Positions 13,120 through 53,945 of a DNA stretch of 64,000 bases are shown one piece after another (within the stretch, counting starts at the first letter, position 1; each line of letters begins with the position of its first letter). The position numbers and the translations under genes are program-made. Source of the stretch: Candidatus Multiplicimicrobium inquinatum (GTDB taxonomy: Bacteria; Omnitrophota; Omnitrophia; Omnitrophales; Aquincolibacteriaceae); the NCBI GenBank assembly GCA_002344825.1, contig DDUN01000003.1, positions 1,775-65,774 of the forward strand, given 5' to 3'. The notes under the pieces were generated by a model. It worked only from the letters and a program-made list of their open reading frames with translations. It searched no databases and had not been told where the DNA came from.

Positions 13120-14943
13120 ATGAAAAAATTAAAACAGTTTGTAGTCAATTTAAAGAGGCTTCGCCTTTTTCTCAAAAAGCTTGATTTAGAACCTGCGCAT
13201 CTTTTTTTTCCCTCCGTGCTTTCTTTGGGCGCAGCGCTACTTGAAGGGGGGGCGTTTGCCTTGTTGGTGCCAACCATGCGCGGGATTATCGAGGCAAATT
13301 ATCAATTTGCATATTCTGCTTCTGGTTTAGGTTGGGTGTTTCAGATATTTCCCCAGTTATTTTTAAATAACAACACGGCTATATTTATTTTCTTGGTTGC
13401 GCTTATTCTTGTTTTTATTATTATGAAAAATGTATTTGCTTACTCGGCAGCAGTGCTTATTTCCCATCGCATGTGGCGTTTTAACCACCAACTACGCTGC
13501 TTGATTTTTAATGCGTATGTTGGTTTTCGAAAAAGTTTTTTTGATAAAAACAGCGTTGGAAATTTACAAAATATTCTTACTGGTTATACCGAGCAAATTG
13601 CTGTTCAATTTAAACTATTTCAGAATGTGTTGTTCCATTTTTTTGCGCTTATTTCTTATCTAATTATTATGGTGTTTATCTCATGGCGCGTTGCGCTTTT
13701 TACCATAACGCTATTACCAATTATAATTTTTTCATTTAAAAAGTTGATTGGTCAAATTAAATTAAACTCTAATCAATTTGCGATACATTTTTCTGAGTTG
13801 GGAAAAAAAATTCTTAACTCGCTTTCGTGTATGCCGCTTATCAAGGCATCGAGTTCCGAGGAAAAAGAGAGAAAATGGTTTGAACGCACAAGCGATGAGG
13901 TGCGCAAACAGCAGATTAATATGGATGTAAGAATCTTATTAATTCCTCCCATGCAGGAAGTTTTTTTTGTTGTTTTATTATTTGTGTTAACAGGCTTTGT
14001 TGCGTATTTGTCAATCCACAGTCAGGATGGAAGTATCGCAGGGTATCTTGTGTTTTTCGTTATAGCAAGGAGGGCCATGAATAGCATTGGGCAACTTACT
14101 GTTTTTCAAGCGAATCTTGCATCAATTGCTGGGCCCTTAAGGCAAATCATGAAGATTTTTGAAGAAAGAAAAATAAATGAAGAAATTAGTGGCGGGGAGA
14201 TATTTGTTCGTTTTGACGACAGAGTGATAATTAGAAATCTTACTTTTTTTTACCATGAGCGAGACGTGCTCAGAGATGTTTCATTTGAGGTTAAGAAGAA
14301 TGAAATGATTGCCATTGTGGGAAAGACAGGCTCTGGCAAATCGACCTTAGCACAGCTTTTTATGCGTTTCTACGAACCGCCAAGAGGAACCATTTTTATA
14401 GATGGAAAAGATATTTTTGATCTGCAAATAGCATCTTGGAGAAAAAAAATTGCGTTTATTACGCAAGACAATTACCTGTTTGATGCCAGTTTTGAAGTTA
14501 ATGTGAAATACGGATGTGAGCCTGAGCCGTTAAAGGCAGAAATCTTAGATGCTTTGGAGAAAGCGCAGCTCAGTGGGCTTTTAAGCAAGCTTCCGCAGGG
14601 GCTTGCAACCGAGATTGGAGAGCGCGGTATCCAGCTTTCTGGTGGTGAAAGACAGCGCTTGTCTTTGGCGCGCGCTATTTTGAGAAAGCCAGAAATTCTT
14701 ATTTTGGATGAAGCCACAAGTGCTCTTGATTCTCAAACAGAACAATTGGTTCAGCGGGCTATTCTTGAAACTGTGAAAGGCAAAACGTCGATTGTGATAG
14801 CTCATCGACTTTCCACGATAAAGAATGCCGATAAAATCATTTTGCTGGAGGAAGGTAGGATTGTAGAGCAAGGCTCTTTTGATGAGTTGATTGCCTTGAA
14901 TGGGCGGTTTAAGTCATATTGGATGCTGCAAGAGCAGGGATAG
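13120..14943 (+). CDS. ABC exporter with fused permease and ATPase (MsbA/lipid-polysaccharide exporter-like)
   Basis: Six-TM N-terminal half; Walker A GKTGSGKST, signature LSGGERQRLSLARAIL, Walker B ILILDEATSALD. It is the first gene of the polysaccharide locus. Confidence 0.85.
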   Translation: MKKLKQFVVNLKRLRLFLKKLDLEPAHLFFPSVLSLGAALLEGGAFALLVPTMRGIIEANYQFAYSASGLGWVFQIFPQLFLNNNTAIFIFLVALILVFIIMKNVFAYSAAVLISHRMWRFNHQLRCLIFNAYVGFRKSFFDKNSVGNLQNILTGYTEQIAVQFKLFQNVLFHFFALISYLIIMVFISWRVALFTITLLPIIIFSFKKLIGQIKLNSNQFAIHFSELGKKILNSLSCMPLIKASSSEEKERKWFERTSDEVRKQQINMDVRILLIPPMQEVFFVVLLFVLTGFVAYLSIHSQDGSIAGYLVFFVIARRAMNSIGQLTVFQANLASIAGPLRQIMKIFEERKINEEISGGEIFVRFDDRVIIRNLTFFYHERDVLRDVSFEVKKNEMIAIVGKTGSGKSTLAQLFMRFYEPPRGTIFIDGKDIFDLQIASWRKKIAFITQDNYLFDASFEVNVKYGCEPEPLKAEILDALEKAQLSGLLSKLPQGLATEIGERGIQLSGGERQRLSLARAILRKPEILILDEATSALDSQTEQLVQRAILETVKGKTSIVIAHRLSTIKNADKIILLEEGRIVEQGSFDELIALNGRFKSYWMLQEQG

Positions 14944-14990
14944 GGATGGGTTTTGTGCCTCTAAAGATATTGTAAAAATACGGATGACTA

Positions 14991-15560
14991 GTGATGCCGA
15001 TTTGTAGGTTTTGGATTATGGCGGGAAATAGATTAGAGTCCTATTTTGCAACACTTATAGTGCGAGTGCGTTTTTATGGGTGTATTCATGCAAAAGGGAA
15101 GGTAGAGTTTGGCTTCGGGGTCCATTTTATTCCGTTTAATGCAAATAAGTTTTTAAGTGTTGTTTTTGATGGAGGTAATCGAATTGGAAATGGGACTGTA
15201 TTCCAAGGTACCGGTCAGATGACATGGGGAAAGAATTCTTACTGCAGAGGATATTGTGTTTTTGGCACTAATGAAAAAATTGAAATTGGCGCAAATGTTA
15301 TGATAGCTGATGCGGTTTCAATAAGAGACACAGATCATGTTTTCAGCGATATTTCCCGCCCATCTATGGTTCAGGGAATAAAAACAGCCCCCGTTATTAT
15401 TGAAGACAATGCTTGGATAGGGCATGGTGCCGTTGTGCTAAAAGGGGTTCGCATAGGTAGGGGTGCTGTTGTTGGGGCTGGTGCAGTCGTGACTAAAAAT
15501 GTCAAACCCTATGATGTCGTTGCAGGCATTCCAGCAAGAATTATTAGTAAAAGGACTTAG
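14991..15560 (+). CDS. Hexapeptide-repeat (left-handed beta-helix) sugar O-acetyltransferase
   Basis: C-terminal hexapeptide repeats IGANVMIADAVSI…IGHGAVVLKGVRIGRGAVVGAGAVVTKNV…VVAGIPARI. The true start is probably internal to the longest ORF. Confidence 0.75.
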   Translation: MMPICRFWIMAGNRLESYFATLIVRVRFYGCIHAKGKVEFGFGVHFIPFNANKFLSVVFDGGNRIGNGTVFQGTGQMTWGKNSYCRGYCVFGTNEKIEIGANVMIADAVSIRDTDHVFSDISRPSMVQGIKTAPVIIEDNAWIGHGAVVLKGVRIGRGAVVGAGAVVTKNVKPYDVVAGIPARIISKRT

Positions 15561-15569
15561 CTGATTTAA

Positions 15570-16457
15570 ATGGTGAAGCCTTCTTTTTTTGTGGTGGGCA
15601 CGCAAAAAGCCGGGACCACTACTCTTCATGAGATATTGAGACAGCACCCACAAATTTTTTTACCCAAAACTAAAGAGGCGCACTTTTTTGATTTTGACGA
15701 TACATTTACAAAAGGATTTGACTGGTGGGTAGAGACATTTTTCAAGGAATGTAATTCGGGAAAAATAGCTGGTGCAATTACACCCGAATATCTTTTTTAT
15801 CCGGAAGTGCCCTTGAGGATTAAAGAGATGTTAGGGGTAGATGTGAAAATTATTATAATTCTTCGCAATCCTGTTGATCGGGCATTTTCACACTATCTAA
15901 TGACAAAAAGACGGGGGCTTGAAGCTTTAAGTTTTGATCAGGCTGTGGCAAAAGAGGCTGAAAGGTTGAAGGCGGGAAGAGACTTTGAAAGAGTGCATTA
16001 CAGCTATTTCTCTCGTGGTTTGTATGCTAAGCAAGTAAAACGCTATCTTGATTTGTTTGGTGCGAAAAATGTATTAATTTTGAAATTCGAGGAAGATTTC
16101 TTGAAAGATAAATTAGCCACAATCGAAAAAATTTTGCGATTTCTGAATGTCTCGGTTATTCAATTAGATGTTGCAAAGAAAAGTAATTCCGCGTCGCGAC
16201 CAAGAATGCCTGCGTTGAGCAGGTTTTTGTATTCAAGGAACTGGTTTAAAGAAAAAATTAAAAGAATTATTGTGTCGAAGGGGATAAGAAAAGAAATAAA
16301 GAATGTGTTAGTGTTTTTAGATCGTTTGAACCAGACAAAGACGAGATTAGAATATTTAACGTTGTATCAGAGAAAAAAGTATCTAAAATTATTCCACGAA
16401 GACATTAAGAAGTTAAGCCTGTTGACAGCGATGTCGTTTCAAGAGTGGTATGAATAG
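15570..16457 (+). CDS. Sulfotransferase (PAPS-dependent)
   Basis: 5'-PSB motif VVGTQKAGTTTL and 3'-PB motif ILRNPVDRAFSHY. Confidence 0.8.
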   Translation: MVKPSFFVVGTQKAGTTTLHEILRQHPQIFLPKTKEAHFFDFDDTFTKGFDWWVETFFKECNSGKIAGAITPEYLFYPEVPLRIKEMLGVDVKIIIILRNPVDRAFSHYLMTKRRGLEALSFDQAVAKEAERLKAGRDFERVHYSYFSRGLYAKQVKRYLDLFGAKNVLILKFEEDFLKDKLATIEKILRFLNVSVIQLDVAKKSNSASRPRMPALSRFLYSRNWFKEKIKRIIVSKGIRKEIKNVLVFLDRLNQTKTRLEYLTLYQRKKYLKLFHEDIKKLSLLTAMSFQEWYE

Positions 16458-17445: not shown

Positions 17446-18525
17446 ATGAAAAAAAAATATATTAAAATCTTACACGTTGTTGGCGCTCGGCCTAATTTTA
17501 TGAAGGTGGCCCCTGTGATGAGAGCTGTTTCTAAATACAAGAGATTTAAACAAATCCTTGTTCATACGGGACAACATTACAGTGCAAACATGTCTGATGT
17601 TTTTTTTCAGCAGTTAGATCTCCCCAAACCTGATTACAGCCTAGGAGTGGGATCTGGCACACATACCTTTCAAACGGCGCAAGTTATGATTCGATTTGAA
17701 AAGGTGGTAGACCATGAGAAACCCAGTTTGGTAATCGTTTATGGAGATGTGAATTCAACAGTAGCTGCTGCCCTTGTTTGTGCAAAAAAGGGTATAAAAA
17801 TCGGGCATGTGGAGGCTGGGCTTAGATCTTTTGATAGAGAAATGCCCGAGGAAACTAATAGGATTTTGACAGATCACCTATGTCAGTATCTTTTTACGCC
17901 TTCGCTTGATGGTAATCAAAATTTAATCAAAGAGGGTATTTCAGCAAAGAAAATTTTTTTTGTTGGGAATGTCATGATAGATACGCTTGTTTATCTTGAG
18001 CCCAAACTAGAAAAGCCAAAGATAGAAGGGCTTTCAGAAAAATATGTGCTTGTAACGTTGCATAGGCCTTCAAATGTTGATGATTCTCAAAGACTGAAGT
18101 TTATATTTAAAGAACTTGTGCGTGTAAGTAAATTTTTTCAAATTATTTTCCCTGTTCACCCTCGAACCAAAGAGAGATTAGAAAAAATAAACCCATCACT
18201 TTTGAGAAAAAAACAAATTTTATTTACAGATCCACTTGGGTATGTGGAGTTTTTATCATTAGAGAAAAATGCGGTGGCTGTACTAACTGATTCCGGCGGT
18301 GTTCAAGAAGAAACCACCTATTTAGGAATTCCCTGCTTTACTCTCCGTGATAATACAGAGCGTCCGATCACACTAACAATCGGAACAAATCATTTGTTAG
18401 GAAGCCGCCCCAAAGAATTGTTTTTTCATTTAATGAAACATAAAAAACGTGTCGCTAAAATACCTGCGTTGTGGGACGGGAAAGCTGCGGGGCGAATAGC
18501 AAATGTGCTGAATCAAGTAATTTAA
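17446..18525 (+). CDS. wecB: UDP-N-acetylglucosamine 2-epimerase (non-hydrolysing)
   Basis: KILHVVGARPNFMKVAPV, HTGQHYS and DSGGVQEE motifs; ~360 aa. Confidence 0.85.
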   Translation: MKKKYIKILHVVGARPNFMKVAPVMRAVSKYKRFKQILVHTGQHYSANMSDVFFQQLDLPKPDYSLGVGSGTHTFQTAQVMIRFEKVVDHEKPSLVIVYGDVNSTVAAALVCAKKGIKIGHVEAGLRSFDREMPEETNRILTDHLCQYLFTPSLDGNQNLIKEGISAKKIFFVGNVMIDTLVYLEPKLEKPKIEGLSEKYVLVTLHRPSNVDDSQRLKFIFKELVRVSKFFQIIFPVHPRTKERLEKINPSLLRKKQILFTDPLGYVEFLSLEKNAVAVLTDSGGVQEETTYLGIPCFTLRDNTERPITLTIGTNHLLGSRPKELFFHLMKHKKRVAKIPALWDGKAAGRIANVLNQVI

Positions 18526-18526: not shown

Positions 18527-19549
18527 ATGATTTATTTTCTTGTTCCTAGAAATCTTTCCAGGGCAGTTGCTGCGTCTCAGATCGTTCCAATGGCTGCGAA
18601 TATTCCCAATCAGGTAAAAACTATAGTTTTTAAATCTAATAAAAATTTTATCCAAACCGAAAACTCTTTGTTGCTGAAACAAAGTTTGGTGGTGATGCTG
18701 ATTTGCAATTTGAAGTCAGGCGATGTTGTTTATACTCGAGAATTTGATGATTTTTTAAAGAGTCTTTTTGTTAAGATTATTTTGAGAAAAAAGATCAAAA
18801 TAATCTATAACTTTAGAGGGTTGGGTAGCGAAGAAAGCTGGGGGAGGCATAGATCGAAAATTAGACGAAGCATTTTGCAGGTAATTGAAGGCTTAATATA
18901 TTATTGTGCTGATGAGGTTGTTGTGGTTTCGAATAATTTTAAAAGATACTTAAAGCATAAATATGGAAGCAGAAAAACGGATGTTATTGAGATGCACTGT
19001 TCAGTTGCGAGAAATTATTTGAAGCAATCATTTTCTCGAGGTTCTTTACGATTTCTTTACTTAGGCGGATTCAGTGTTTGGCAAAAGCCATGTGAAGTAA
19101 TCGAGATTTTTAAAAAATTGAAGAAAAAGTATCATGGCTCAAAGCTTACTATTATTAGTTATAGTCAGCCGGATGCCCGGCTTCAGAACTTAATTGAATC
19201 TAATAACGTCGAGATTATATCTCTTTCGCATGAAAATGTAGTTCAAGTGTTGCCATTATATGATTTTGGATTTATTTTGCGCGACAACATTTTAATGAAT
19301 CAGGTTTCATCACCAATTAAGTTTTCCGAGTATGTGGCCATGGGTGTTGTTCCAATTATCAGTCCTGGAGTTGGCGATTTTTATGAAGTGTCTAAGCGTA
19401 AGGCGCTGGCTGTTTGCACGAATGACCACTTTGATTTTAGTTTAGATGATTTTGAAAAAATTCTCAATGATGAGAAAATTCATGAAAGACTGTATGAGTT
19501 TTCAAAGGATTTTCTTTGGAAGAATTCCTTGAGAAAATTTCCAGTCTGA
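18527..19549 (+). CDS. Divergent GT-B fold glycosyltransferase (GT4-like)
   Basis: LYLGGFSVWQKP… and the C-terminal SPIKFSEYVAMGVVPIISPGVGD resemble the GT4 E-x7-E region. Weak overall. Confidence 0.4.
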   Translation: MIYFLVPRNLSRAVAASQIVPMAANIPNQVKTIVFKSNKNFIQTENSLLLKQSLVVMLICNLKSGDVVYTREFDDFLKSLFVKIILRKKIKIIYNFRGLGSEESWGRHRSKIRRSILQVIEGLIYYCADEVVVVSNNFKRYLKHKYGSRKTDVIEMHCSVARNYLKQSFSRGSLRFLYLGGFSVWQKPCEVIEIFKKLKKKYHGSKLTIISYSQPDARLQNLIESNNVEIISLSHENVVQVLPLYDFGFILRDNILMNQVSSPIKFSEYVAMGVVPIISPGVGDFYEVSKRKALAVCTNDHFDFSLDDFEKILNDEKIHERLYEFSKDFLWKNSLRKFPV

Positions 19550-19587: not shown

Positions 19588-20361
19588 ATGAGACCTAAGT
19601 TAGAAGTGTTAGTTTCATGCATGTATCAAATCGATATGTCAATTGTAGAGAGAGCGAATATTTCATCAAGTGCTGTTGTTGTTAATCAATGTGATAGAGA
19701 CTTGTATGAAGAGATTGCTGTGGGCGAAAATAGAATTAGAATGTTCTCATGTTTGGATAGAGGTTTATCGAAAAGTAGAAATAAAGCGTTAAAAGAGTCC
19801 GCGGCTGACATTTGTTTGTTGTGCGATGATGATGAACATCTTGAAGATGATTATGTTTCAAAAATACAAGAAGCATATGAGAAATATCCTGATGCGGATA
19901 TTATCGCATTTAGGCTTGAGCGATCGTCTCGTTCTTATTGGACTGTCCCTAGAAGAATTAACTATCTCAACTCTTTGAAAATCTCTTCGTGTCAAATCAG
20001 CTTTAAACGAAATAGCATTATCGGACGCGGCATTTTTTTTGATGAGACATTTGGCGCTGGAACAAGGTACAGTTTTGGCGAAGAAAATATTTTTTTGTAT
20101 GAATGTTTAAAAAAGGGGCTCAAAGTATATTATCTTCCAATAAAAATAGCTTTTGTTGCTGATGAAAAATCAACATGGTTTAATGGGTTTACAACGCAAT
20201 ATTTTTTTAACCGGGGTGTAATTACTCGAAGGTATATGGGGAGATTTTTTGCAATTCTATACGCTATTTATTTTGCTGTTTTTAAGTACTCCATTTATAA
20301 ATCAGCGACTCCCTTTCGAACAGCTTTGGGAAAGATGATCGAAGGTGTTTGGAGAGATTAG
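19588..20361 (+). CDS. Glycosyltransferase family 2-like
   Basis: RGLSKSRNKALKESAADICLLCDDDEHLED matches the GT2 substrate-binding/DxD region. Confidence 0.55.
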   Translation: MRPKLEVLVSCMYQIDMSIVERANISSSAVVVNQCDRDLYEEIAVGENRIRMFSCLDRGLSKSRNKALKESAADICLLCDDDEHLEDDYVSKIQEAYEKYPDADIIAFRLERSSRSYWTVPRRINYLNSLKISSCQISFKRNSIIGRGIFFDETFGAGTRYSFGEENIFLYECLKKGLKVYYLPIKIAFVADEKSTWFNGFTTQYFFNRGVITRRYMGRFFAILYAIYFAVFKYSIYKSATPFRTALGKMIEGVWRD

Positions 20362-21701: not shown

Positions 21702-22426
21702 GTGTTCGGGATATGGCAAGCAAGCTTGATCACTCGCTTTCATACAAAAAGGTAAGTTTCAAAAACGCAGGGCATTTTTGCAGAAAAAAATCAATTTTAA
21801 ACCTAATCCATTCATTTAACTTGAACCCAGAGGGCACCTATTTTGATGTGGGTTGTAGCAATGGATATTTGACCCGTCTAATCACGGATGAGATTGGATT
21901 TAAAAAAGTTGTGGGATTGGATCACGCGGAAAGCCATTTAGAGAGGGCTCGGCTAGAAAACCCAGCAATAATTTTTGATTTTATTGATTTAAATTTAGTG
22001 CCACGGAGTGGGTGCCGTGAGGGTAGTGCTGATTTTGTAACCTGCTTTGAATGTTTGGAGCACGTGGGGAGTGTTAATAATGCAATTAAAAATATAGTTT
22101 CACTTTCAAAAGAGAAATCAGTAATTTTCGTTTCGGTTCCCATAGAGATTGGTTTTTGGGGAGTAATTAAGTTTCTTTGTAAGACAATTATTTTTCAGTA
22201 TCGGTTGGATGAGTTGGCAGGTAAGCCCAGATGGAGTGAATATTTTTTTGATTTGATTAAGGGTGCCCGAATTTCAAAATATCGCGAGCTGCGTCAAGGG
22301 TGGAGTACGCATTTTGGGTTTGACTATCGCGAGGTAGATGAAGAGTTTTTAAAATTGGGACTCAAATTTAAAGCGTTTAACTCATTTACGACACGATTTT
22401 ATGTGATTAAGAGGGGGCAGGGTTGA
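21698..22426 (+). CDS. Class I SAM-dependent methyltransferase
   Basis: Motif I YFDVGCSNGYLT and motif II VTCFECLEHV. Confidence 0.7.
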   Translation: MSVRDMASKLDHSLSYKKVSFKNAGHFCRKKSILNLIHSFNLNPEGTYFDVGCSNGYLTRLITDEIGFKKVVGLDHAESHLERARLENPAIIFDFIDLNLVPRSGCREGSADFVTCFECLEHVGSVNNAIKNIVSLSKEKSVIFVSVPIEIGFWGVIKFLCKTIIFQYRLDELAGKPRWSEYFFDLIKGARISKYRELRQGWSTHFGFDYREVDEEFLKLGLKFKAFNSFTTRFYVIKRGQG

Positions 22427-23850: not shown

Positions 23851-23854
23851 GTAA

Positions 23855-34877: not shown

Positions 34878-34879
34878 AA

Positions 34880-44391: not shown

Positions 44392-44393
44392 TT

Positions 44394-47918: not shown

Positions 47919-48527
47919 ATGTTTAAAAAAAGTTTGATTTGGATGCTCTTTGCTTTTGTATTTATGACGCCCGGATGGTGCGCTGAGACAGACCTGACCG
48001 CGCCGCCCTCAGCGTCTACGAACAGTCCAACGGCTCAAAGGATGTTGCGTAGCGGAGATGTATTAAATATCACCGTTTGGCAGCATAAAGACTTGACCAC
48101 GACGGTAATTGTGGATGAAGAAAGCAATGTAGAGTACTTATTTCTGGGAGTTATTTCAGTTAAAAATAAAACCGTGCATGACCTAAAGGAGATTCTTCGC
48201 AAGGGGATCTCGGAGAATTACATTGTTGATCCTAAGATTGATATTACGGTTGATCGCAAGTCGCTTACTTTTTTTATTGCGGGCGAAATTGCAAAGCCCG
48301 GAACCTATGAGTTTCGTCCTGGAATCACAGTGTTAGAGGCGGTTGCTATGGCGGGTGGATTTACGGACTATGCTTCACGCAAGGTGAAAATTGTGCGCAG
48401 GGGTGATGATGGCGCTGAGAGAGAAATCAAAATTAACACCAAGAAGCTGCTCCGCGCGACAGATCAGCGTGAAGACTCTAGAATTTATGTAGATGATATT
48501 CTTGTTGCCGACCGAGCGTGGCTATAA
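47919..48527 (+). CDS. wza: Polysaccharide export protein, Wza/Poly_export family (short form)
   Basis: Signal peptide; Poly_export motif SGDVLNITVWQHKDL; SLBB-like FIAGEIAKPGTYEF…TVLEAVAMAGGFTDYA. Confidence 0.8.
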   Translation: MFKKSLIWMLFAFVFMTPGWCAETDLTAPPSASTNSPTAQRMLRSGDVLNITVWQHKDLTTTVIVDEESNVEYLFLGVISVKNKTVHDLKEILRKGISENYIVDPKIDITVDRKSLTFFIAGEIAKPGTYEFRPGITVLEAVAMAGGFTDYASRKVKIVRRGDDGAEREIKINTKKLLRATDQREDSRIYVDDILVADRAWL

Positions 48528-48549: not shown

Positions 48550-50511
48550 TTGATGAATAAACTAATTTTGAAACATCTTAAGATTTGGGTTTTTCCTCTT
48601 TTTTTTATTACAGCGATCCTTGTGACTTTTGTTCTGTGGGGAGAGAAAAAAATGCGGGCGCCGGCTGGTTTTCACGACATCCGGTTTTTAGAGCAGACTT
48701 TTTCATCCGCTCAAAAAATGGGGGATTTATTTTTTTTATCCAACTATTTTATTCATCGAACCGCGGAGATTTTGGCGCTTTCCAACCGTGATCCGGAAGC
48801 TTTGCTTCTTTATGAGTATATTAACCATGTTTTGAGAACGTCCGATCCTGCGCGGGATATTTCTGATTTGAAGTATGCCGTGGCGGTTTACAAGAAGCAG
48901 CTCCTCATTTCAACTTCACCGTATCTCAAAATCTACATTTCAATTTCTGAGCAGCTTAATTTATTCAAGTCTTTTAACTTGGGGAGAGAACTTCTAACCG
49001 GCTCGGACTTGAGAGTGGAGTTATTAAGAGAGTTGAAAAATGAAGGTCTAATTGAGGAGAGTATGACTCGCCAGCAAAAACTTTTATCGCGGACGGAGTT
49101 TTTTAAGGTTCGATCACTGGTTATGATGAATCTTGCTTTTATGGCCTATGAAGTCAATCCGGCCGAAGCAGCTAAGTGGATTGAACAGGCTAAAAAATCG
49201 GATCCGCCTACGAGTGTTCAATTTGCGCTGACTTACTTAGAGGGAAGAATTCAAAAGAAAAAGAGCGTTTCTTCTCAGTCAGATTTTAAAAATGAGTTTG
49301 AAGAGCGATTGCTTAAGTCACTAAGACTCGGACTTTTTAACGCGGTAAAAGAAGAATTAAAAAATGAACAAGGGCAAGCTTTCGGGTCTGCCCGTGTCCG
49401 GGAGACTGAAAGCTGGCTGGATATGGATTGGAAATCCGCGGAAAAAGAAAAGCCGCCCTTTTTTTCTGTTTATTTCAAAACCTTGCATGAATTTGGTGAT
49501 AATCCGGTTGAAGCGGCGGATAAGCTGGCGGCTATGGCGGCGGATCGGGATTGGTCTCTTTATAGTTCTTTTTTACGGTATCAGGCTTGGGGAGTGGCCT
49601 TTTTTGACGCGAAAGATTTTAGCCGCGCGGTATTGTTTAAAGATTTTTTAAAAACGTATGACCCTTTTAGCTTGTTCAGCCAGCTGGAGTCCATGGGCGG
49701 AACTTTTAAATTTGCGTTCAAAGAGTTTAAAGGGGAAGAATTGGCCCGGGTGTGGGAGCATATGCCGCAACTATTTGATAAACAGCGCAGTGAGGAATGG
49801 GAGGGCTTTAAAAGCCGCAAAAAGCGTGTTGCCCAGACGATTGTTTATGAGGGGCAAGTTTATGTGGTGAATTACGATGTTTCGGGATTGGCTCAAAAAG
49901 TGCTTTTGGTGGGCATGAACCAAGTGGCTTCTGAGAGGAAGCCGGTTGTTTCCGAAAAATTAGAATCGGAGAAACTCAGTCTTGTTGATAAGTTTTTTTA
50001 TGAATATATGATTCAGTTTATTCCGGAAGGAGTCAATGCGTTCAAAGATCAAATTGCAAAATTATCGGAGCGCCTAAAAGAGCCTGTTTTTACGCGTTTT
50101 TATACCGAGTTTGAGTTTCAAGAGTACATTGTTAGACATATGGAAAAGAGGTTGGGTGGGGTTGCCAAGGGGATTCAGGCCAAGATAGATGAGCAGGGGT
50201 TCGCGCTTTACGCGATTTTCGACTTAAAGCTTTTAACAGCACCTGTGTCCGGCGTTGGAAAGTTAATTACGGAAGATGAGAGCGGGCGATTGATCTTGAA
50301 GTTAGATCATGTTAAAGTCAACGGTATTTATTTGCCCGACTGGATATTGCGGCGAGTGGAAAAAAACTTTAGTTTGACTGCAAATTTGGATTATACAAAT
50401 AGCGCAAGCGGGATTGAGATTTTAAATATGGAATATCAGCCTGGCGGCGTTCAAATTAAGTGTCGCAAGTCCTCAATTAACCTTTATGGAAATGCTGCCA
50501 TGGCAGCTTAA
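48550..50511 (+). CDS. Hypothetical protein of 653 aa with one N-terminal TM helix; unknown function
   Basis: N-terminal TM segment (IWVFPLFFITAILVTFVLW), then a large, mostly helical soluble domain. No recognisable catalytic motif. It occupies the position between wza and wzc. Confidence 0.4.
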   Translation: MMNKLILKHLKIWVFPLFFITAILVTFVLWGEKKMRAPAGFHDIRFLEQTFSSAQKMGDLFFLSNYFIHRTAEILALSNRDPEALLLYEYINHVLRTSDPARDISDLKYAVAVYKKQLLISTSPYLKIYISISEQLNLFKSFNLGRELLTGSDLRVELLRELKNEGLIEESMTRQQKLLSRTEFFKVRSLVMMNLAFMAYEVNPAEAAKWIEQAKKSDPPTSVQFALTYLEGRIQKKKSVSSQSDFKNEFEERLLKSLRLGLFNAVKEELKNEQGQAFGSARVRETESWLDMDWKSAEKEKPPFFSVYFKTLHEFGDNPVEAADKLAAMAADRDWSLYSSFLRYQAWGVAFFDAKDFSRAVLFKDFLKTYDPFSLFSQLESMGGTFKFAFKEFKGEELARVWEHMPQLFDKQRSEEWEGFKSRKKRVAQTIVYEGQVYVVNYDVSGLAQKVLLVGMNQVASERKPVVSEKLESEKLSLVDKFFYEYMIQFIPEGVNAFKDQIAKLSERLKEPVFTRFYTEFEFQEYIVRHMEKRLGGVAKGIQAKIDEQGFALYAIFDLKLLTAPVSGVGKLITEDESGRLILKLDHVKVNGIYLPDWILRRVEKNFSLTANLDYTNSASGIEILNMEYQPGGVQIKCRKSSINLYGNAAMAA

Positions 50512-50514: not shown

Positions 50515-52560
50515 ATGGTAGCTCAAAGTGAAGAAAATCTGGTAGATCCCCAGCTTGAGGGGGATGATTTAGGGCCGGTTTGGAAGAGGTTTAAAAAACT
50601 TCTTTTACGCTTCTATCCTTTTGTCTTGATTTATGTTTTTTTTGTTGTGGTTGTGACCGTTGTTTGGGCCGAATTTCAAACCCCTCTTTATCAGTCTACC
50701 GCGACAATTCTCGTTGATCCGACCCGCGTAACCAATAACGCTGAAAAGCAAAGTTTAGAAAACTTGGCTTTACAGGCCACCTTAATATCAAGTCCGGGCA
50801 TTTTGAATAAAGTCATCGAAAATTACAACCTTGCCTCAATTTTTCCGTTTAATAAGTCGGCTAGTCCGATGGCTTTGTTGCAAAGCCAAATGACGGTAAA
50901 ACCCAACATCAAGAGCAAAACCTTGGATGTGAATTACCTTTTTTTAAGCAGTGAAGAATCCGCCAAAATTGCGAATGCTATCGCGGAAACGTATGTTTTT
51001 TCAAGTGAAGAAAAGAGCCAAGGGACAACGCAAGATTCTTTAGCTTCTCTGCAGTTGAATTTGCTTCAGGAGATGGAAAAACAGGAGAAGGTAAAAAACA
51101 AAATCGAAGATTTCAGAAAAAAGTATCCTGAAATCGAAGATGAGATAACCGTGAACAAACAGATTGATTACTTTAACGCGGAGTTGACTAAATCGGATGC
51201 GGCCACAATTGAGCTGCGCACTAAGATTCTCGAAATTGAGCAATATAGTAAAGATACGGGAAATATTTTTGATCACCCCTATATTACGGAAAATGAGATC
51301 GTTAAAAGACAGTTGGAACGGATTAGAATCGCTGAAGGGACGTTGGAAGAATTAAAGCATCAGTTTCGAGATATGCATCCGGATGTGGTTGCCGCGCAGG
51401 CACGCGTCGACAGCTTGAAGAAATCAATGGAGCTGGACCAGGAGAGAATATTTGGACAGCTGAAACTTGAATTGAAAACTTTGGAATCAACTCGCGACAG
51501 ATTGAAGGAGCAGTTGGACGCTTTACGGAGAAAGGTGAAAGAGCTTGCCCCTCAAAAAATTCAATTGAGCAACCTTGATTCAGAGGAGAAATCGATTTCA
51601 AACACGATCCGTTTGATTCAGGAGCGGATGGCAATGGCGTCGGTTGAGGGCGGACTGAAGCGTCCCGGTGTTGAAATTTTGAATTATGCGAAGCCTAGCG
51701 TTGCCCCCGCGTGGCCCAATAAGCCCAAACTGCTTGTTGCCGCAATGGCGATTGGCTTTATTTCAAGTCTAGGGCTGATTTTTCTTTATTGCTACTTTGA
51801 TCGATCAATGCGGACGCATGATGATGTTGAAAATGTGGCCGGAAAGCTTTTTCTCGGAGATCTCACTTATGCGAAGGTGAAGCCAGGCGAGCTTTATCCC
51901 GAGTTTCCGAATGACAAATCATTTATCTTATTTACGCATGGCTTGCGCTTGATTGCCACCAATATTGAATTTGTGCTTTCAGACCGGCATGAAAAGTCAG
52001 TGCTTTTTACCAGCGCGATTCCGGGCGAAGGAAAAAGCTTTGTCGCTTTTCATGTGGCTCAGTCGATGGCCCGCCAGGGGAAAAAAGTTATTCTGATCGA
52101 TGCTGATTTTTGCCAATCATCTCTTCGTGACAAAGTTCCCAAAACCGAGTGTGAAAAGCATTTGTATGAATATCTTTCCGGCACCGCGGAAATGGCGGAG
52201 ATTATTGAGAAGACAGACAATGAATTGATTGATTTTATTCGGTCGGGTGGGCGGTCTTCTTTTAGCGCGCCGCATGCTTTGAAGTCAAACCGAATGCGTG
52301 ATCTGCTGGTGGAGCTGAAGCATGTGTATGATTATGTTTTGATCGATACTCCTCCTGTCTTGCCAGTGAATGATACAATGGCAGTAAGTCAACATGTGGA
52401 TATGCGTGTGATTGTGGTGCGGTGGGCAAGCACGAACCGTGATTTGGTGAAAAAGGCTGTAATGAAAATTGCTCCCGGACAGCTTCTGCTTTCCGGAATT
52501 GTTCTCAACCAGGTAAAAGAGATGGCGGATAAAGGTTATCACGTTTATCGGCCTAATTAA
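50515..52560 (+). CDS. wzc: Polysaccharide co-polymerase / tyrosine-kinase-like protein (Wzc/PCP-2a family)
   Basis: Wzz-type N-terminus with TM and long coiled-coil periplasmic region. C-terminal P-loop SAIPGEGKSF (Walker A), VILIDADF (A') and VLIDTPPVLPVNDT (Walker B). Confidence 0.75.
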   Translation: MVAQSEENLVDPQLEGDDLGPVWKRFKKLLLRFYPFVLIYVFFVVVVTVVWAEFQTPLYQSTATILVDPTRVTNNAEKQSLENLALQATLISSPGILNKVIENYNLASIFPFNKSASPMALLQSQMTVKPNIKSKTLDVNYLFLSSEESAKIANAIAETYVFSSEEKSQGTTQDSLASLQLNLLQEMEKQEKVKNKIEDFRKKYPEIEDEITVNKQIDYFNAELTKSDAATIELRTKILEIEQYSKDTGNIFDHPYITENEIVKRQLERIRIAEGTLEELKHQFRDMHPDVVAAQARVDSLKKSMELDQERIFGQLKLELKTLESTRDRLKEQLDALRRKVKELAPQKIQLSNLDSEEKSISNTIRLIQERMAMASVEGGLKRPGVEILNYAKPSVAPAWPNKPKLLVAAMAIGFISSLGLIFLYCYFDRSMRTHDDVENVAGKLFLGDLTYAKVKPGELYPEFPNDKSFILFTHGLRLIATNIEFVLSDRHEKSVLFTSAIPGEGKSFVAFHVAQSMARQGKKVILIDADFCQSSLRDKVPKTECEKHLYEYLSGTAEMAEIIEKTDNELIDFIRSGGRSSFSAPHALKSNRMRDLLVELKHVYDYVLIDTPPVLPVNDTMAVSQHVDMRVIVVRWASTNRDLVKKAVMKIAPGQLLLSGIVLNQVKEMADKGYHVYRPN

Positions 52561-52610
52561 TCAAACTTGCTTACCTTGATCTTTGTTTTTGCAAAAAAGA
52601 GCCGTATTGA

Positions 52611-53945
52611 ATGAAGGGTATTTCAAGACGAAGTTTGTTTTTGCTGGTTTCCGACTCTATTTTTTTGTTTGTTTGTTTTCATTTGGCGGCTTATTGGTCT
52701 TATGGAACTTCTCTTAATTTGATTGTCGCGCGCGAAAATCTCTTTTTTATTTTCTTTGTTTACCTGCTTTGTTTTTATATTTTTGATCTTTATTTTCCGT
52801 TCAAACTGTATAAGCCTGCCCAAACTTTGATTGATGTCGGTTTGGCTTGCGCATGCGCCGCAATTTTTATTTCAGCCGCTTGGTTTTTGAATCGCAGCGG
52901 AGTTGTTTCGCGCCCCTGGTTTTTGATTTTTAATTTGCTCGCGATTCCGAGCGCGGTCATTGTGCGTCTGGTTTACGATGTTTTCTTTCAATCGCGGATT
53001 GCGGATAAAAAAACACTGGTTCTGGGCACAGATATTATGGCGCAGTCAATTGTACGTGTGATTCGTGAGACCCCGCATTCAGGAATTAACTTAGTCGGAG
53101 TTGTTTCGGAAGAGAAAACATTTGAAAAAGATTTGGAGGGAATCCCGGTTCTTGGCTCCGCATCTCAGCTTCTTTCTCTGATTGACTGGCATCATATTCA
53201 GCTGGTTGTTTTAGCCGTAAATGCGCAGTCCCGCATGTCCGAGCCTGATCTCATGATGGCGCTGATGCGGCAAAATGTTCAGGTGACCAGTGCGGTGCAT
53301 TTATTTGAAAAAATGGATGAGGCCATTCCTTTTGATGCCGTGAACGAGCATTTTATTTTATCTTTGATGTCTGAGGCCCGCGGTTTGCGCTACCTGCATA
53401 CCAAAAGAATTTTGGATTTAGTGATTGTGAGCGTTCTTTTACTTTTATTTTCTCCCGTGATGCTGCTGGCGTGGCTATTCCTTTTTTTTCAGGGACCAAA
53501 GAATATTTTCTTTTTTCAGGATCGAATCGGCGTGGGCGGAAGAAAATTTCGATTAATTAAATTTAGAACTATGACTAAGCCGGATGCTTCCGGACGTCAA
53601 AAGGTTACGGGGGTAGGACGGTTATTAAGAAAGTTTAGGGTGGATGAAACTCCCCAGCTTATCAATGTTCTCAAAGGCGATATGAGTTTAATCGGGCCGC
53701 GTCCTGAAATAGAGTACTTTGTTGAACGGTGTCGGAAAAGCATTCCTTATTATGATGCGGTTTTTACCGTGCGTCCGGGAATTACAGGATGGGCGCAGGT
53801 TAAGTTTCTGCATACAACTGAAATGAAGGATTATCCGCGCAAGTTTTGCTATAACCTGTTTTACTTAAAAAACCTGTCTTTTTCTCTCGATTTTTTGATT
53901 GTTCTTAAAACGATCAGGGTTGTTCTTTTGGGGCGCGGCAAGTAA
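52611..53945 (+). CDS. wbaP: Undecaprenyl-phosphate sugar-1-phosphate transferase (WbaP/bacterial sugar transferase family), the initiating enzyme
   Basis: Four N-terminal TMs and a C-terminal Bac_transf domain (KRILDLVIVSVLLLLFSPVMLLAW…DMSLIGPRPEIEYF…RPGITGWAQV). Confidence 0.85.
   Translation: MKGISRRSLFLLVSDSIFLFVCFHLAAYWSYGTSLNLIVARENLFFIFFVYLLCFYIFDLYFPFKLYKPAQTLIDVGLACACAAIFISAAWFLNRSGVVSRPWFLIFNLLAIPSAVIVRLVYDVFFQSRIADKKTLVLGTDIMAQSIVRVIRETPHSGINLVGVVSEEKTFEKDLEGIPVLGSASQLLSLIDWHHIQLVVLAVNAQSRMSEPDLMMALMRQNVQVTSAVHLFEKMDEAIPFDAVNEHFILSLMSEARGLRYLHTKRILDLVIVSVLLLLFSPVMLLAWLFLFFQGPKNIFFFQDRIGVGGRKFRLIKFRTMTKPDASGRQKVTGVGRLLRKFRVDETPQLINVLKGDMSLIGPRPEIEYFVERCRKSIPYYDAVFTVRPGITGWAQVKFLHTTEMKDYPRKFCYNLFYLKNLSFSLDFLIVLKTIRVVLLGRGK

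Follow-up and report, generated by a model that had tools for sequence, protein, structure and literature searches.

A predicted surface polysaccharide locus of an omnitrophote combines a recurring export frame with mosaic cargo

How would a glycan leave the cell if its locus encodes both an ABC exporter and Wzy-like proteins, and no Wzx, and do the genes of such a locus follow one design? The original prediction described this combination in the window studied here, a 64-kb stretch of DNA from the MAG of an uncultured Candidatus Omnitrophota bacterium of bioreactor sludge, and it is confirmed by our searches: no ORF of the window has a Polysacc_synt/MOP match, and tblastn of the window with a relative's true Wzx finds none. 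Pfam and NCBIfam profile searches of the window ORFs likewise bear out a single-strand polysaccharide locus of about 41 kb with dense tailoring, and its predicted domains, including the sulfotransferase, WecB, the AsnB-like protein, the Gfo/Idh/MocA dehydrogenase, the carbamoyltransferase and the SDR enzyme, with small corrections. Positions 13120 to 53945 hold 33 plus-strand ORFs (32 intact and one glycosyltransferase remnant), co-directional as predicted though fewer than the approximately 35 expected. The coding fraction is 95%, 20 of the 32 junctions overlap or span at most 25 bp, no gap lacking an assigned gene exceeds 422 bp, and minus-strand ORFs are short and all nested inside plus-strand genes. 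Read from its domain content, the block directs synthesis and export of a heavily decorated surface sugar polymer, probably of the capsule, exopolysaccharide or O-antigen type.

Synteny comparison of the window with five related loci reveals that this block is a recurring frame around mosaic cargo, rather than one coherent design. Its chromosomal site is fixed: dapL, a housekeeping gene, borders it on one side and an apaH-like gene, with mrp next, on the other. A promoter-like element and an ABCB-type exporter form the 5' end of the frame; five genes form its 3' end.

13059–13093, + strand: conserved promoter-like element (TTGATA, 17 nt, CAAATT, then TATAGC) upstream of the ABC gene, putative in function
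13120–14943, + strand: ABCB-type half-transporter (PF00664 and PF00005), candidate lipid-linked glycan flippase/exporter
45675–47897, + strand: Wzp-like outer-membrane beta-barrel porin of 740 aa, with signal peptide, extra N-terminal domain and about 16 strands (residues ~400–735)
47919–48527, + strand: Class-3 (D1D2) OPX of 202 aa, no Wza_C; Poly_export PF02563 and PF10531, conserved C-terminal R-A-W-[L/F/W]
48550–50511, + strand: conserved 653-aa protein, anchored by an N-terminal TM helix, the remaining body being non-hydrophobic and presumably extracytoplasmic
50515–52560, + strand: Wzc, PCP-2a with BY-kinase domain (TIGR01007 124.5, cutoff 108)
52611–53945, + strand: WbaP/WcaJ-type polyprenyl-phosphate hexose-1-P transferase, initiating (TIGR03025 311.5, cutoff 295.6; PF02397 180 bits)

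The ATTGATA and TATA(G/A)C blocks of the promoter-like element are invariant in four otherwise divergent dapL–ABC intergenic regions, and the near-identical strain L050 has them too. Between the frame ends lie 27 cargo genes, low in GC, which differ in every relative examined and whose modules differ in history and GC. From the start of the adenylating-enzyme gene onward the window shares 89% nucleotide identity with relative L047, the upstream sequence being unrelated, while relative L012 lacks the segment 33586–36289 and has the GT-C, GT4, GT4 and AsnB genes contiguous.

27844–28160, no strand: intergenic recombination junction, the L047 homology boundary
33586–36289, + strand: inserted low-GC segment (0.374) holding the LPLAT acyltransferase, a methyltransferase and the GT1 remnant
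35971–36309, + strand: GT1-domain C-terminal remnant of 112 aa (PF00534 positions 96–158 of 172 only), pseudogene and recombination scar, with stop codons in all frames upstream

The four large gaps of the block lie at 23458–23854, 27844–28160, 33586–34007 and 35741–35970. Promoters in the second and third had been envisaged as dividing the block into independent operons; both gaps coincide with the recombination junctions seen against L047 and L012, and promoter and terminator scans of the block are at chance level overall, a weak terminator-like site (27859–27875) and a promoter-like site (27889–27916) among them.

The predicted Wza/Wzc export holds for Wzc, with Walker A (GEGKS) at 504, A' at 527 and B at 609, and only two C-terminal tyrosines (tail KGYHVYRPN). 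The supposed Wza is instead a short D1D2 OPX without the Wza_C helix, for which the best NCBIfam models, the XrtA export protein and Myxococcus EpsY, both fall below cutoff. The 740-aa protein is modelled as an outer-membrane beta-barrel at low overall confidence (pLDDT 58.5), its strands numbering about 16 instead of 18. The 653-aa protein has no Pfam, NCBIfam or PDB match; L013 (54% identity) and L014 (38%) also carry it, flanked by OPX and Wzc. The initiating transferase, with motifs V-D-E-T-P-Q and G-P-R-P, is the only one in the window. Wzy-dependent polymer export is characteristically marked by a BY-kinase Wzc together with an OPX and a WbaP-type transferase.

The ABC exporter falls below the NCBIfam equivalog cutoffs of HepA (419 against 725), MsbA (367 against 602) and PglK (236 against 1000), and its orthologs (55–69% identity) head the same locus in four relatives. 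It had been cautioned that it might be an unrelated housekeeping MsbA, a lipid A flippase at the locus edge, with a Wzx elsewhere serving the pathway. MsbA is indeed its best bacterial structure match (258 bits) and second-best NCBIfam model, by sequence it is closer to MsbA/ABCB1 than to PglK, its gene adjoins dapL and in relatives leaves 180–279 bp before the next gene, and in L050 the ABC ortholog is directly followed by a true Wzx, showing that the two can occur together. We nevertheless consider this explanation very improbable: besides the failed cutoff, L050 has exchanged the gene along with the cargo (62% identity against 90–99% for flank genes), the homology break falls inside it, its divergence resembles that of glycan-contacting export proteins, and its closest homologs outside the group, though distant, are located in glycan loci, one in Peribacteraceae, a CPR lineage generally regarded as without LPS. 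Replacement with the cargo in so close a strain in particular argues that it is not housekeeping msbA. Because L050 carries both transporters, ABC instead of Wzx is not fixed in this locus family, and the Wzx beside it indicates that the ABC exporter has some role not simply duplicating Wzx; a Wzx for the window's own pathway could reside in another part of the genome.

The cargo genes predicted to build, polymerise and decorate the glycan are as follows.

14991–15560, + strand: hexapeptide O-acetyltransferase, WbbJ/WcaF-like (PF00132; WbbJ 82 bits, below cutoff)
15570–16457, + strand: PAPS-type sulfotransferase (Sulfotransfer_1 PF00685 E=1.5e-20; N-terminal K-x-G-T-T motif), with sulfotransferases also in L044 and L050
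16450–17442, + strand: GT2 glycosyltransferase, weak (PF00535 35 bits)
17446–18525, + strand: WecB, UDP-GlcNAc 2-epimerase (TIGR00236 333 bits, cutoff 210)
18527–19549, + strand: GT4-like glycosyltransferase, weak (PF13439 24 bits, PF00534 18.5 bits, both below cutoff)
19588–20361, + strand: GT2 glycosyltransferase (PF00535 37.5 bits)
20520–21701, + strand: Wzy_C-family polytopic membrane protein, ~8 TM, candidate polymerase (PF04932 39.1 bits, cutoff 31.7)
21698–22426, + strand: SAM methyltransferase (PF13489/PF08241)
22423–23457, + strand: GT2 with C-terminal TM helices (251, 274, 301), candidate polyprenyl-P-sugar synthase (PF00535 86.6 bits)
23855–25126, + strand: second Wzy_C-like polytopic membrane protein, ~8 TM, candidate polymerase, ligase or O-OTase (PF04932 26.3 bits, below the same cutoff)
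25123–26364, + strand: GT4 glycosyltransferase (PF00534 114.6 bits)
26668–27843, + strand: GT2 glycosyltransferase (PF00535 93 bits)
32407–33585, + strand: GT-C fold glycosyltransferase, 11 TM, rare family, invariant G97-S98-D99-x-D101
34847–35740, + strand: SAM methyltransferase (PF13489 30.9 bits)
36290–37429, + strand: GT4 glycosyltransferase (PF00534 126.6 bits; L012 ortholog 49%)
37422–38597, + strand: GT4 glycosyltransferase (PF00534 99 bits; L012 ortholog 63%)
38651–40525, + strand: AsnB-family glutamine amidotransferase, candidate uronamide-forming (PF00733 and PF13537; TIGR01536 427, above 267; TIGR03108 453, below 817; L012 ortholog 86%)
40542–41606, + strand: Gfo/Idh/MocA sugar dehydrogenase (PF01408 113.7 bits; UDP-GlcNAc 3-dehydrogenase model 99.8 bits, below cutoff)
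41630–43381, + strand: NodU/CmcH-type carbamoyltransferase (PF02543 and PF16861), with a homolog (46%) in L049, a distant ABC-linked glycan locus
43399–44391, + strand: SDR epimerase/reductase, GDP-fucose synthase-like (PF01370 136.7 bits; Fcl model 119.6 bits, below cutoff)
44343–45611, + strand: WcaI-like GT4 glycosyltransferase (PRK10307 87.9 bits, below cutoff; L014 ortholog 50%)

Where at least ten GT2 or GT4 enzymes had been predicted, there are nine intact GT-A/GT-B enzymes (four GT2 and five GT4-like, two of them weak), in addition to the remnant and the GT-C enzyme. Two of three predicted methyltransferases lie inside the block; the third, very weak (8601–9983, E=0.0011), lies outside. 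Of the two predicted Wzy/ligase-like membrane proteins, one passes the Wzy_C cutoff and has no ortholog in the relatives. The unannotated 11-TM protein was considered as a hidden Wzx and rejected, being the GT-C enzyme. The original prediction included neither this enzyme nor the porin, the pseudogene and the Class-3 assignment of the OPX. A partner enzyme making the GT-C donor was not identified by PDB comparison and ArnC/GtrB equivalog models applied to the candidate GT2 at 22423, which matches neither equivalog and resembles a membrane GT2 (6yv7) and DPMS (5mlz) over the generic N-terminus only.

The presence of two Wzy_C proteins and a GT-C enzyme could reflect more than a single product. 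The Wzy_C domain occurs also in WaaL ligases and PglL-type O-OTases, and it is possible, as a tentative alternative, that two or more separate glycoconjugate pathways share one strand, for example a Wzy-polymerised exopolysaccharide beside a glycan exported by the ABC protein and attached to lipid A-core or a surface protein by a ligase or O-OTase of the Wzy_C family. The four gaps and the unlike histories and GC of the modules are consistent with this, as are the two polymerase-like proteins of L044 (Wzy_C and EpsG-like), the second, small PGT of L013 and the paired ABC and Wzx of L050. A single pathway is favoured by the lone initiating transferase, the co-directional, densely coding layout, gaps that are recombination junctions rather than demonstrated promoters, and the fully covered JAYTHE locus, which manages with the same frame and one Wzy_C.

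The carrier-protein module bears on the predicted acyl decoration.

26342–26590, + strand: DltC-like carrier protein, ACP/PCP (PF00550 34.5 bits; Ser34 in L-D-S motif; DltC best NCBIfam model)
28161–29672, + strand: stand-alone PltF-like adenylating enzyme (PltF 6o6e E=2.3e-90, full length), Gly212 replacing the alpha-amino-binding Asp
29684–31165, + strand: flavin L-amino-acid/L-lysine alpha-oxidase-like enzyme (PF01593 120.5 bits; LAAO 8jhe 1.1e-51, L-Lys oxidase 7eii 5.9e-42)
31194–32414, + strand: NikD/monomeric sarcosine oxidase-like flavoenzyme (DAO-family PF01266 133.8 bits; NikD 2oln best at 3.7e-52, 180.7 bits, MSOX behind at 155 bits)
34008–34877, + strand: LPLAT-superfamily acyltransferase, LpxL/PatA-like, invariant His139 in W-H-H-G

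An ACP with an adenylating enzyme and two flavin oxidases is present as predicted, but of stand-alone NRPS/Dlt rather than fatty-acyl type, and the LpxL-like acyltransferase stands at superfamily level only (PF03279 21.4 bits alone; 6 of 13 family members match PF03279, best 2.8e-48, and the family profile matches PatA at 1.4e-4). The decoration is probably neither fatty acyl nor plain aminoacyl. It is unlikely, though the ligase matches DltA (250 bits; TIGR01733 297 bits), the carrier resembles DltC, the LPLAT enzyme parallels AlmG and PltF is a prolyl ligase, that the module performs Dlt/AlmEFG-type aminoacylation (with glycine, alanine or proline, for example) of glycan or lipid A beside unrelated tailoring or salvage oxidases: where amino-acid-activating enzymes use an Asp to bind the alpha-amino group, this ligase has Gly (A4 motif F-G-I-S instead of F-D-x-S when aligned with PltF and LgrA), and the two flavoenzyme genes follow the ligase gene at 11 and 28 nt. 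Taken together, these features reproduce the lysine-to-picolinate-to-activation logic. Most plausibly the module installs a picolinate-like acyl group. In L047 an ACP gene lies directly upstream of the adenylating-enzyme ortholog. In the window the genes for the ACP, the ligase and the acyltransferase stand apart, and that of the acyltransferase belongs to a segment with its own insertion history; the three may therefore not cooperate.

What the analysis establishes is gene content, folds, synteny, the pattern of divergence and the recombination junctions; from sequence we infer every substrate, in which order the steps run, what the ABC exporter does and how many products there are. To the following assembly, frame and mosaic cargo included, we give a probability of roughly 0.6. 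The initiating transferase would prime undecaprenyl phosphate, on which the nine cytoplasmic GT2/GT4 enzymes would assemble a repeat unit, using precursors that WecB, the SDR enzyme, the dehydrogenase and the amidotransferase have modified, with acetylation, methylation, sulfation and carbamoylation. The lysine-oxidase-like and NikD-like enzymes would most plausibly turn lysine into a picolinate-like heterocyclic acid, which the ligase, ACP and acyltransferase would esterify to the glycan; the sulfated, carbamoylated, amidated, methylated and acylated product predicted originally is a reasonable reading of these families. Since Wzx is missing from this version of the locus, transport of the lipid-linked glycan across the inner membrane most likely falls to the cargo-linked ABC exporter, acting as PglK and Wzk do. 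A Wzy_C protein would then polymerise (or ligate) it, the GT-C enzyme could add a sugar from a polyprenyl-phosphate-sugar donor at the periplasmic face, and the polymer would exit via a composite translocon of Wzc, Class-3 OPX and beta-barrel.

An ABC exporter and Wzy_C proteins without Wzx mirror the Wzk exporter and WaaL of H. pylori (PMC2841628). By that precedent the whole chain would be completed on its lipid carrier in the cytoplasm and flipped by the ABC exporter, the Wzy_C proteins being ligases. Nine glycosyltransferases could make a long non-repeating chain and the ABC allele co-varies with cargo, yet the explanation is doubtful, given a frame typical of Wzy-dependent export, an ABC exporter whose closest relative is not PglK/Wzk, and Wzy_C proteins that are not conserved across relatives with different cargo, as fits repeat-unit-specific polymerases and not constant-acceptor ligases. 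The locus is of a kind already known, a recurring export frame with swappable tailoring genes, and a few of its parts are unusual.

The locus at window 13120-53945 belongs, as judged from its genes, to the surface-polysaccharide loci of the Wzy/Wzc type and has a Class-3 OPX translocon; it does not overturn current models. It comprises 33 ORFs, every one on the + strand and together covering 95% of the span, with 20 of the 32 gene junctions either overlapping or separated by 25 bp or less; the - strand carries only short ORFs nested within the + strand genes. The co-directional block of the original prediction is confirmed, with 33 genes in place of about 35. The unusual elements indicated by the sequence are a cargo-linked ABCB exporter, an unrecognised GT-C glycosyltransferase, a conserved cassette protein of 653 aa (X653) and, probably, a heterocyclic-acyl decoration. 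We give the account set out here, taken as a whole, a probability of about 0.6; the identity of the locus, its division into frame and cargo, the translocon type and the GT-C call are its more secure parts, the role of the ABC exporter and the acyl chemistry its less secure ones.

Scanning every ORF with Pfam and NCBIfam recovered nearly all of the functions assigned earlier: the ABCB/MsbA-like exporter, a hexapeptide acetyltransferase, the ACP, an AMP-binding enzyme, two flavin oxidases (amine oxidase and DAO-family), an AsnB-type amidotransferase, a Gfo/Idh/MocA dehydrogenase, a NodU/CmcH carbamoyltransferase, an SDR, WecB (333 bits, cutoff 210) and a Sulfotransfer_1 protein with a K-x-G-T-T PAPS loop. 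The proposed Wza/Wzc export is represented by an OPX protein and a Wzc (TIGR01007 124.5, cutoff 108), and the WbaP/WcaJ-type initiating transferase (PGT, 52611-53945; TIGR03025 311.5, cutoff 295.6; PF02397 180 bits) carries the DE and GPRP motifs. Other calls need adjustment. Both of the two Wzy/ligase-like proteins have a Wzy_C domain, one passing the cutoff of 31.7 (39.1 bits) and one below it (26.3 bits); the locus is glycosyltransferase-rich as described, with nine intact GT2/GT4 enzymes rather than at least ten, plus a GT1 C-terminal remnant of 112 aa (35971-36309) with stop codons in all upstream frames; the LpxL-like acyltransferase holds at superfamily level and no closer; and only two of the three methyltransferases lie inside the block. 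No tRNA or Rfam family was found in the window.

Of the parts of a Wzx/Wzy-dependent pathway the locus shows the PGT, a PCP-2a Wzc with a BY-kinase domain and the OPX protein (PF02563 58.8, above 28), and it has no Wzx. The Wzc has Walker A, A' and B motifs, and its C-terminal tail, ending KGYHVYRPN (52500-52560), holds two tyrosines against the usual tyrosine-rich cluster. The Wzy_C domain does not tell polymerases from ligases, and a PDB sequence search with the two Wzy_C proteins returned no matches. Several proteins had their best matches among models of the exosortase/PEP-CTERM (XrtA) EPS locus, all far below cutoff (TIGR03108 453 against 817, TIGR03098 189 against 592, TIGR03027 87.6 against 180, TIGR03018 99 against 231), and this assignment was rejected, no exosortase domain being present in the window.

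Homologs of the ABC exporter, and of the two large proteins that lack annotation, served to trace relatives; three other contigs showed the same gene order:

L044+L013: Logan contig SRR22388275_32219
L045+L014: GCA_043732705.1, contig JAYTHE010000002.1, locus covered in full, 28.5 kb
L046: contig SRR25018348_2215

In each, a divergent dapL (- strand) is followed by the ABC exporter and a variable glycosyltransferase and tailoring set with one Wzy_C protein, and then by an unannotated protein of ~730 aa, an OPX protein of ~200 aa, a second unannotated protein of ~650 aa, Wzc (681 aa), the PGT (444 aa) and an apaH-like gene (- strand). The window has the same flanks, namely an LL-diaminopimelate aminotransferase gene (DapL, TIGR03542 614 bits, cutoff 365) and, downstream, a convergent ApaH-like phosphoesterase gene followed by the Mrp antiporter. 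Proteins identical to those of the window turn up in metagenomes of bioreactor sludge and in the MAG GCA_035436425.1 (Candidatus Omnitrophota bacterium). Between the ABC exporter (13120-14943) and the porin (45675-47897), all but 3 of the 27 cargo genes are without a counterpart in those relatives; the exceptions are WecB (51%), the sulfotransferase (34%) and one GT4 (50%). The GC content of the cargo is 0.374-0.418, that of the flanks 0.445-0.459. For Omnitrophota, polysaccharide cassettes of a hypervariable kind are on record only in general terms (bioRxiv 10.64898/2026.06.07.730766).

Several observations concern the flanks and the cargo of relatives. A metallophosphoesterase gene of the ApaH/PPP family (53961-54626, - strand) adjoins the PGT gene here and in L013 (82%) and L014/L015 (60%); no Wzb or PHP phosphatase gene is recognisable inside the locus, so this gene may supply the Wzc phosphatase, or may simply belong to the flank. 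Between DUF493 and dapL, in this genome only, lies a translationally coupled pair (8601-11551, + strand) whose products are a 460-aa protein, matched only very weakly to methyltransferases, and a membrane-anchored protein of 523 aa from the sulfatase/alkaline-phosphatase family; L050, a homologous locus, has an unannotated 229-aa protein at this position, L045 a pyruvyl-transferase fragment and L044 nothing. The pair is a second small variable islet, just outside the locus, and may provide further decoration. The conserved upstream flank also includes two tandem HSP20 genes (5561-6727, - strand), one with a long N-terminal extension (219 aa), and 394-3482 (+ strand) encodes an Fe/B12-type ABC importer (periplasmic binding protein, FecCD permease, ATPase) with a corrinoid adenosyltransferase gene after it; this has the look of an ordinary cobalamin-salvage operon and is syntenic in L045. 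At 4366-9819 of L014 (GCA_043732705.1) two genes lie between the cargo glycosyltransferases and the porin gene, one for a protein of 1363 aa without any domain match and one for a Fic-domain protein. Sulfotransfer_1 genes occur in relatives with otherwise different cargo, two in L044 (8079-12294) and one in L050 (8136-8885), and sulfation of surface glycans may thus be widespread in this lineage of Omnitrophota.

Two further contigs place junctions within the cargo. On L012 the 11-TM (GT-C) protein is followed directly by orthologs of the GT4 genes at 36290 (49%) and 37422 (63%) and of AsnB (86%). Because these genes adjoin there, window 33586-36289 is an insertion relative to the L012 arrangement; it holds the acyltransferase, a methyltransferase and the glycosyltransferase remnant, at a GC content of 0.374. 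L047, one short contig and the only one returned when metagenome contigs were searched with the ligase, encodes an 88% identical ligase with another GT4 and another ACP ahead of it, and its nucleotide homology to the window begins exactly at the ligase start codon; the same search with the amine oxidase gave no match. From these breakpoints it follows that the gaps at 27844-28160 and 33586-34007, earlier suspected of holding promoters, coincide with recombination junctions. Repeats and IS elements were sought at the module borders, with just short AT-rich chance matches, none significant. Scans for consensus sigma-70 promoters and terminators gave counts equal to shuffled controls and are uninformative on operon structure. 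We consider it possible, as a lesser prospect, that the one block serves several glycans.

By sequence the ABC exporter is a generic ABCB half-transporter (PF00664, fused). Its best NCBIfam model, HepA, scores below cutoff (NF045513, 419 against 725 bits), as do those of MsbA (TIGR02203, 367 against 602; PRK11176, 305 against 867) and PglK (NF050066, 235.7 against 1000). PglK is absent among its best 60 PDB sequence matches, and its best bacterial structure match is MsbA. A search of genome contigs with the exporter returned matches only ~30% identical, in Aquirufa and others, and recovered neither the species nor its relatives. The exporter is not the two-component ABC-2 transporter of the KpsMT or Wzm/Wzt type; membership of that type is likewise not supported, with no Capsule_synth domain in the window and a KpsE model match of only 15.5 bits, on Wzc.

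The original prediction had named, as a reading that would undo it, an exporter that is simply an unrelated housekeeping MsbA. Besides the missed equivalog cutoffs, the pattern of divergence speaks against this. Across relatives the ABC exporter is 55-61% identical, the porin 45-63%, X653 38-54% and OPX 64-74%, while the flanking proteins are far better conserved (DapL 87-90%, MrpA 92%, MnhB 95%); the exporter diverges like the glycan-contacting export proteins and not like the housekeeping flanks. Its exchange can be seen directly in L050, from the same sample as the window's population and with flanks 93% nucleotide-identical, where HSP20 is 99%, DUF493 98% and DapL 90% identical and the ABC exporter only 62%. 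The dapL-ABC intergenic region is conserved, homology ends ~90 nt into the ABC gene, and the ABC gene has been exchanged together with the cargo. In 5 of 5 genomes a promoter-like element precedes the ABC gene (TTGATA, 17 nt, (C/T)AAWWT, then TATAGC). The nearest ABC homologs beyond this group also lie inside glycan loci. One, in a Peribacteraceae MAG (41%), is among KpsC/S-like, CMP-sugar synthetase and NeuB genes; another (37%) heads the glycan locus L049 (Logan SRR33375177, 10001-21806), followed after 5 nt by an AsnB-like gene (32% to that of the window) and then by GT9, GT1 and GT4 genes and a carbamoyltransferase gene (46%). The ABC-AsnB-carbamoyltransferase combination therefore recurs outside the Omnitrophota relatives. 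A housekeeping MsbA is on these grounds very improbable.

The absence of a Wzx, predicted for the locus, extends to the whole 64-kb window. Profiles of the Wzx/MOP type (PF01943, PF13440, MatE, MurJ) matched none of its ORFs, tblastn with the genuine Wzx of L050 found nothing in it, and no stretch without an assignment is longer than 422 bp; its sole unannotated polytopic protein is the GT-C enzyme. The fully covered JAYTHE locus has no Wzx candidate, and none was seen in L046 and L044/L013 as far as those loci are covered, the polytopic membrane proteins of all three cargoes being Wzy_C and EpsG-like only. L050 does encode a Wzx (PF01943, 447 aa, 11 TM), 26 nt past the ABC gene and followed by a 12-TM Wzy-like protein, so the role of the conserved exporter is not merely Wzx replacement. 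In the Wzx-less versions, including the window, the ABC exporter is, by analogy, the strongest candidate for carrying lipid-linked glycan over the membrane. Such a step is performed in H. pylori by Wzk, an ABC flippase of lipid-linked glycan with WaaL as partner (PMC2841628). A fully cytoplasmic, Wzk-style assembly, with the Wzy_C proteins acting as ligases, would also suit a Wzx-less locus, but the exporter is here combined with Wzc/OPX export, and we rate this scheme as rather improbable.

The ORF at 32407-33585 (+ strand; 392 aa, ~11 TM helices) belongs to no Pfam or NCBIfam GT-C family and matches none, and only six homologs were found among 5.8 billion proteins; in this lack of a family match and in its rarity it is unlike ArnT, GtrC-type enzymes, PimE and PIG-M/ALG3. 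Its structural model (pLDDT 77.9, pTM 0.79) nevertheless matches GT-C enzymes that use lipid-phosphate sugars (PimE 15.3, AglB 15.2, ArnT 14.3), with MOP transporters reaching only 6.7, and thus assigns it the GT-C membrane fold and not that of Wzx. A G97-S98-D99-x-D101 motif is invariant in six sequences, its extracytoplasmic position being predicted from hydropathy only. Homologs in L010 and L012 lie among GT4 and aminosugar genes, without the ligase module. We read the protein, from its model, as a putative decorating glycosyltransferase of the periplasmic face. No GtrA-type flippase or clear GtrB/ArnC-type donor synthase could be identified in the locus. The GT2 at 22423-23457, which has a fitting GT2 plus C-terminal TM architecture, may be the polyprenyl-P-sugar synthase partner, but has no match at the level of ArnC, GtrB or DPMS.

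The ACP (26342-26590) is DltC-like (PF00550 34.5 bits), with Ser34 in L-D-S, and the ligase (28161-29672) is nearest, over its full length, to PltF (E=2.3e-90), a stand-alone prolyl-carrier-protein ligase; with these affinities a fatty-acyl reading of the pair was dropped for the stand-alone NRPS/Dlt type. In alignments the ligase A4 motif is F-G-I-S where PltF and LgrA have F-D-x-S, Gly212 replacing the alpha-amino-binding Asp. Domains that activate alpha-amino acids conserve this residue (Asp235; PMC11355689). Beginning 11 nt past the ligase gene is that of a flavoenzyme like L-amino-acid/L-lysine alpha-oxidase (8jhe 1e-51, 7eii 6e-42), and after a further 28 nt comes the gene of an enzyme to which, among solved structures, NikD is closest (180.7 bits; the sarcosine oxidase MSOX scores 155). 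Alpha-oxidation of lysine yields 2-keto-6-aminocaproate, which cyclises to piperideine-2-carboxylate. The nikkomycin pathway takes lysine to piperideine-2-carboxylate, which NikD oxidises to picolinic acid for activation by an adenylate-forming ligase (PMC4021061). Together, this logic and the chemistry of lysine alpha-oxidation make a picolinate-type acyl pathway the most economical reading, in which lysine would pass through piperideine-2-carboxylate to picolinate or a related heterocyclic acid and be loaded as acyl-ACP, and an LPLAT enzyme would move the acyl group from acyl-ACP to the glycan. The candidate, encoded at 34008, falls in the LPLAT (LpxL/PatA) superfamily, its family profile matching PatA at 1.4e-4; 6 of its 13 relatives match PF03279 (best 2.8e-48), and a His in W-H-H-G is invariant. 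The module contains no MBOAT, an 11-TM candidate having turned out to be the GT-C enzyme. The genes of this putative module are not contiguous, and the acyltransferase lies in the separately inserted segment.

As predicted from sequence, the module would work like AlmEFG of V. cholerae lipid A glycylation (PMC4278540) but lacks the mark of alpha-amino-acid activation. It shares with AlmEFG and DltABCD a stand-alone adenylating ligase and a phosphopantetheinyl carrier protein, and with AlmG a transferase of the LPLAT/LpxL superfamily for carrier-dependent acylation of an envelope glycoconjugate. It is unlike them in its ligase without the alpha-amino-binding Asp, its two flavin oxidases, its scattered genes, its want of DltB and DltD, and its acceptor, presumably a polysaccharide and not lipid A. 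Plain aminoacylation of the Dlt/Alm kind would account for the ligase and carrier protein but not for the Asp-to-Gly change or the two oxidase genes adjoining the ligase, and we think it unlikely. To our knowledge a picolinoyl substituent has never been reported on any bacterial polysaccharide. The resemblance of the picolinate-type pathway to the nikkomycin branch (NikC/SanL, NikD, NikE/SanJ; PMC4021061) lies in a NikD-like flavoenzyme beside an adenylate-forming enzyme, a preceding enzyme that could remove the alpha-amino group of lysine and the same three-step logic. The first step would here fall to an oxidase and not an aminotransferase, activation would be PltF-like, onto a carrier protein and not to CoA, and the setting is a polysaccharide locus and not a nucleoside antibiotic cluster.

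At the export end the OPX protein (202 aa) consists of PF02563 (residues 38-111) and an SLBB domain (118-189) with nothing beyond, and so without Wza_C; its best NCBIfam matches include M. xanthus EpsY. It is of the Class-3 (D1D2) type, and the syntenic beta-barrel resembles synthase-pathway secretins, the 740-aa porin model matching CdiB (21.2), OprB (19.6), PelB (16.3), AlgE (15.5), PgaA (15.5) and BcsC (14.9). In the published composite translocon WzaB binds its porin through a Phe203-Phe204 motif (PMC9601211, PMC9603273, PMC12819527), to which the conserved R-A-W-[L/F/W] end of the OPX orthologs appears analogous. A Cys after the OPX signal peptide, in a non-canonical lipobox, is present in the window and L013 and absent in L014. 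The N-terminal ~350 aa of the porin (45675-46800) comprise a low-complexity acidic stretch after the signal peptide and a mixed alpha/beta domain (residues ~115-257) modelled with moderate confidence; in the papers just cited the models of Myxococcus Wzp and EpsX are simple barrels of 18 strands, which makes this extension an apparent addition. X653 (48550-50511), conserved, membrane-anchored and encoded between OPX and Wzc, has no match in Pfam (E<=10), NCBIfam or a profile search of PDB sequences.

A joint reading, which we offer tentatively and hold to be improbable in its entirety, is that related Omnitrophota share a modular chassis in which a cargo-swapped, glycan-specific ABCB exporter replaces Wzx to feed a Wzy/Wzc/Class-3 OPX/beta-barrel line, that this version adds a lysine-derived picolinoyl (pyridine-2-carboxyl) group via a carrier protein and LPLAT enzyme to a sulfated, carbamoylated polymer, and that X653 forms a previously undescribed periplasmic part of the Class-3 translocon. 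Members of the Omnitrophota have not been cultured, are for the most part ultra-small and probably depend on hosts (PMC10066038), so the glycans on their surface likely mediate attachment and are likely phage and host targets. The basic picture of polysaccharide biosynthesis is unchanged. The locus and its relatives give a concrete anatomy of recurring parts (ABC, porin, OPX, X653, Wzc, PGT), swapped parts and junction positions; ABCB exporter alleles that travel with glycan genes bear on how lipid-linked glycans cross the membrane without Wzx; X653 adds a conserved member to an export cassette of the Class-3 OPX type, whose translocon architecture is only beginning to be understood; and a compact enzyme set that perhaps attaches a heterocyclic acyl group to a sugar polymer is of interest for glycan chemistry and enzyme discovery.

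Among known systems, the locus resembles those of E. coli group 1 capsule and colanic acid and of M. xanthus EPS, BPS and MASC in its WbaP/WcaJ-type transferase, GT2/GT4 enzymes, Wzy_C protein, PCP-2a Wzc with kinase domain and OPX, and in having serotype-like variable genes flanked by conserved ends at one fixed place on the chromosome; unlike them it is without Wzx, has an ABCB-type exporter as a constant member and has a Wzc tail with just two tyrosines. With PglK of C. jejuni, Wzk of H. pylori and HepA of Anabaena it shares a half-size ABCB exporter in a Wzx-less glycan locus with a Wzy_C protein. It differs from them in that the exporter misses the HepA, PglK and MsbA equivalog cutoffs and is combined with Wzc/OPX export, and in that one relative has both exporter and Wzx. 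The M. xanthus translocons EpsY-EpsX and WzaB-WzpB likewise have an OPX with Poly_export and one SLBB domain and no Wza_C, an aromatic OPX C-terminus, an adjacent PCP and an adjoining outer-membrane beta-barrel gene whose product is structurally near AlgE, PgaA and PelB. The present barrel is modelled with ~16 strands against their 18 and carries the extra N-terminal region of ~350 aa, its gene lies upstream of that for OPX, the lipidation Cys is not conserved, and X653 stands between OPX and Wzc.
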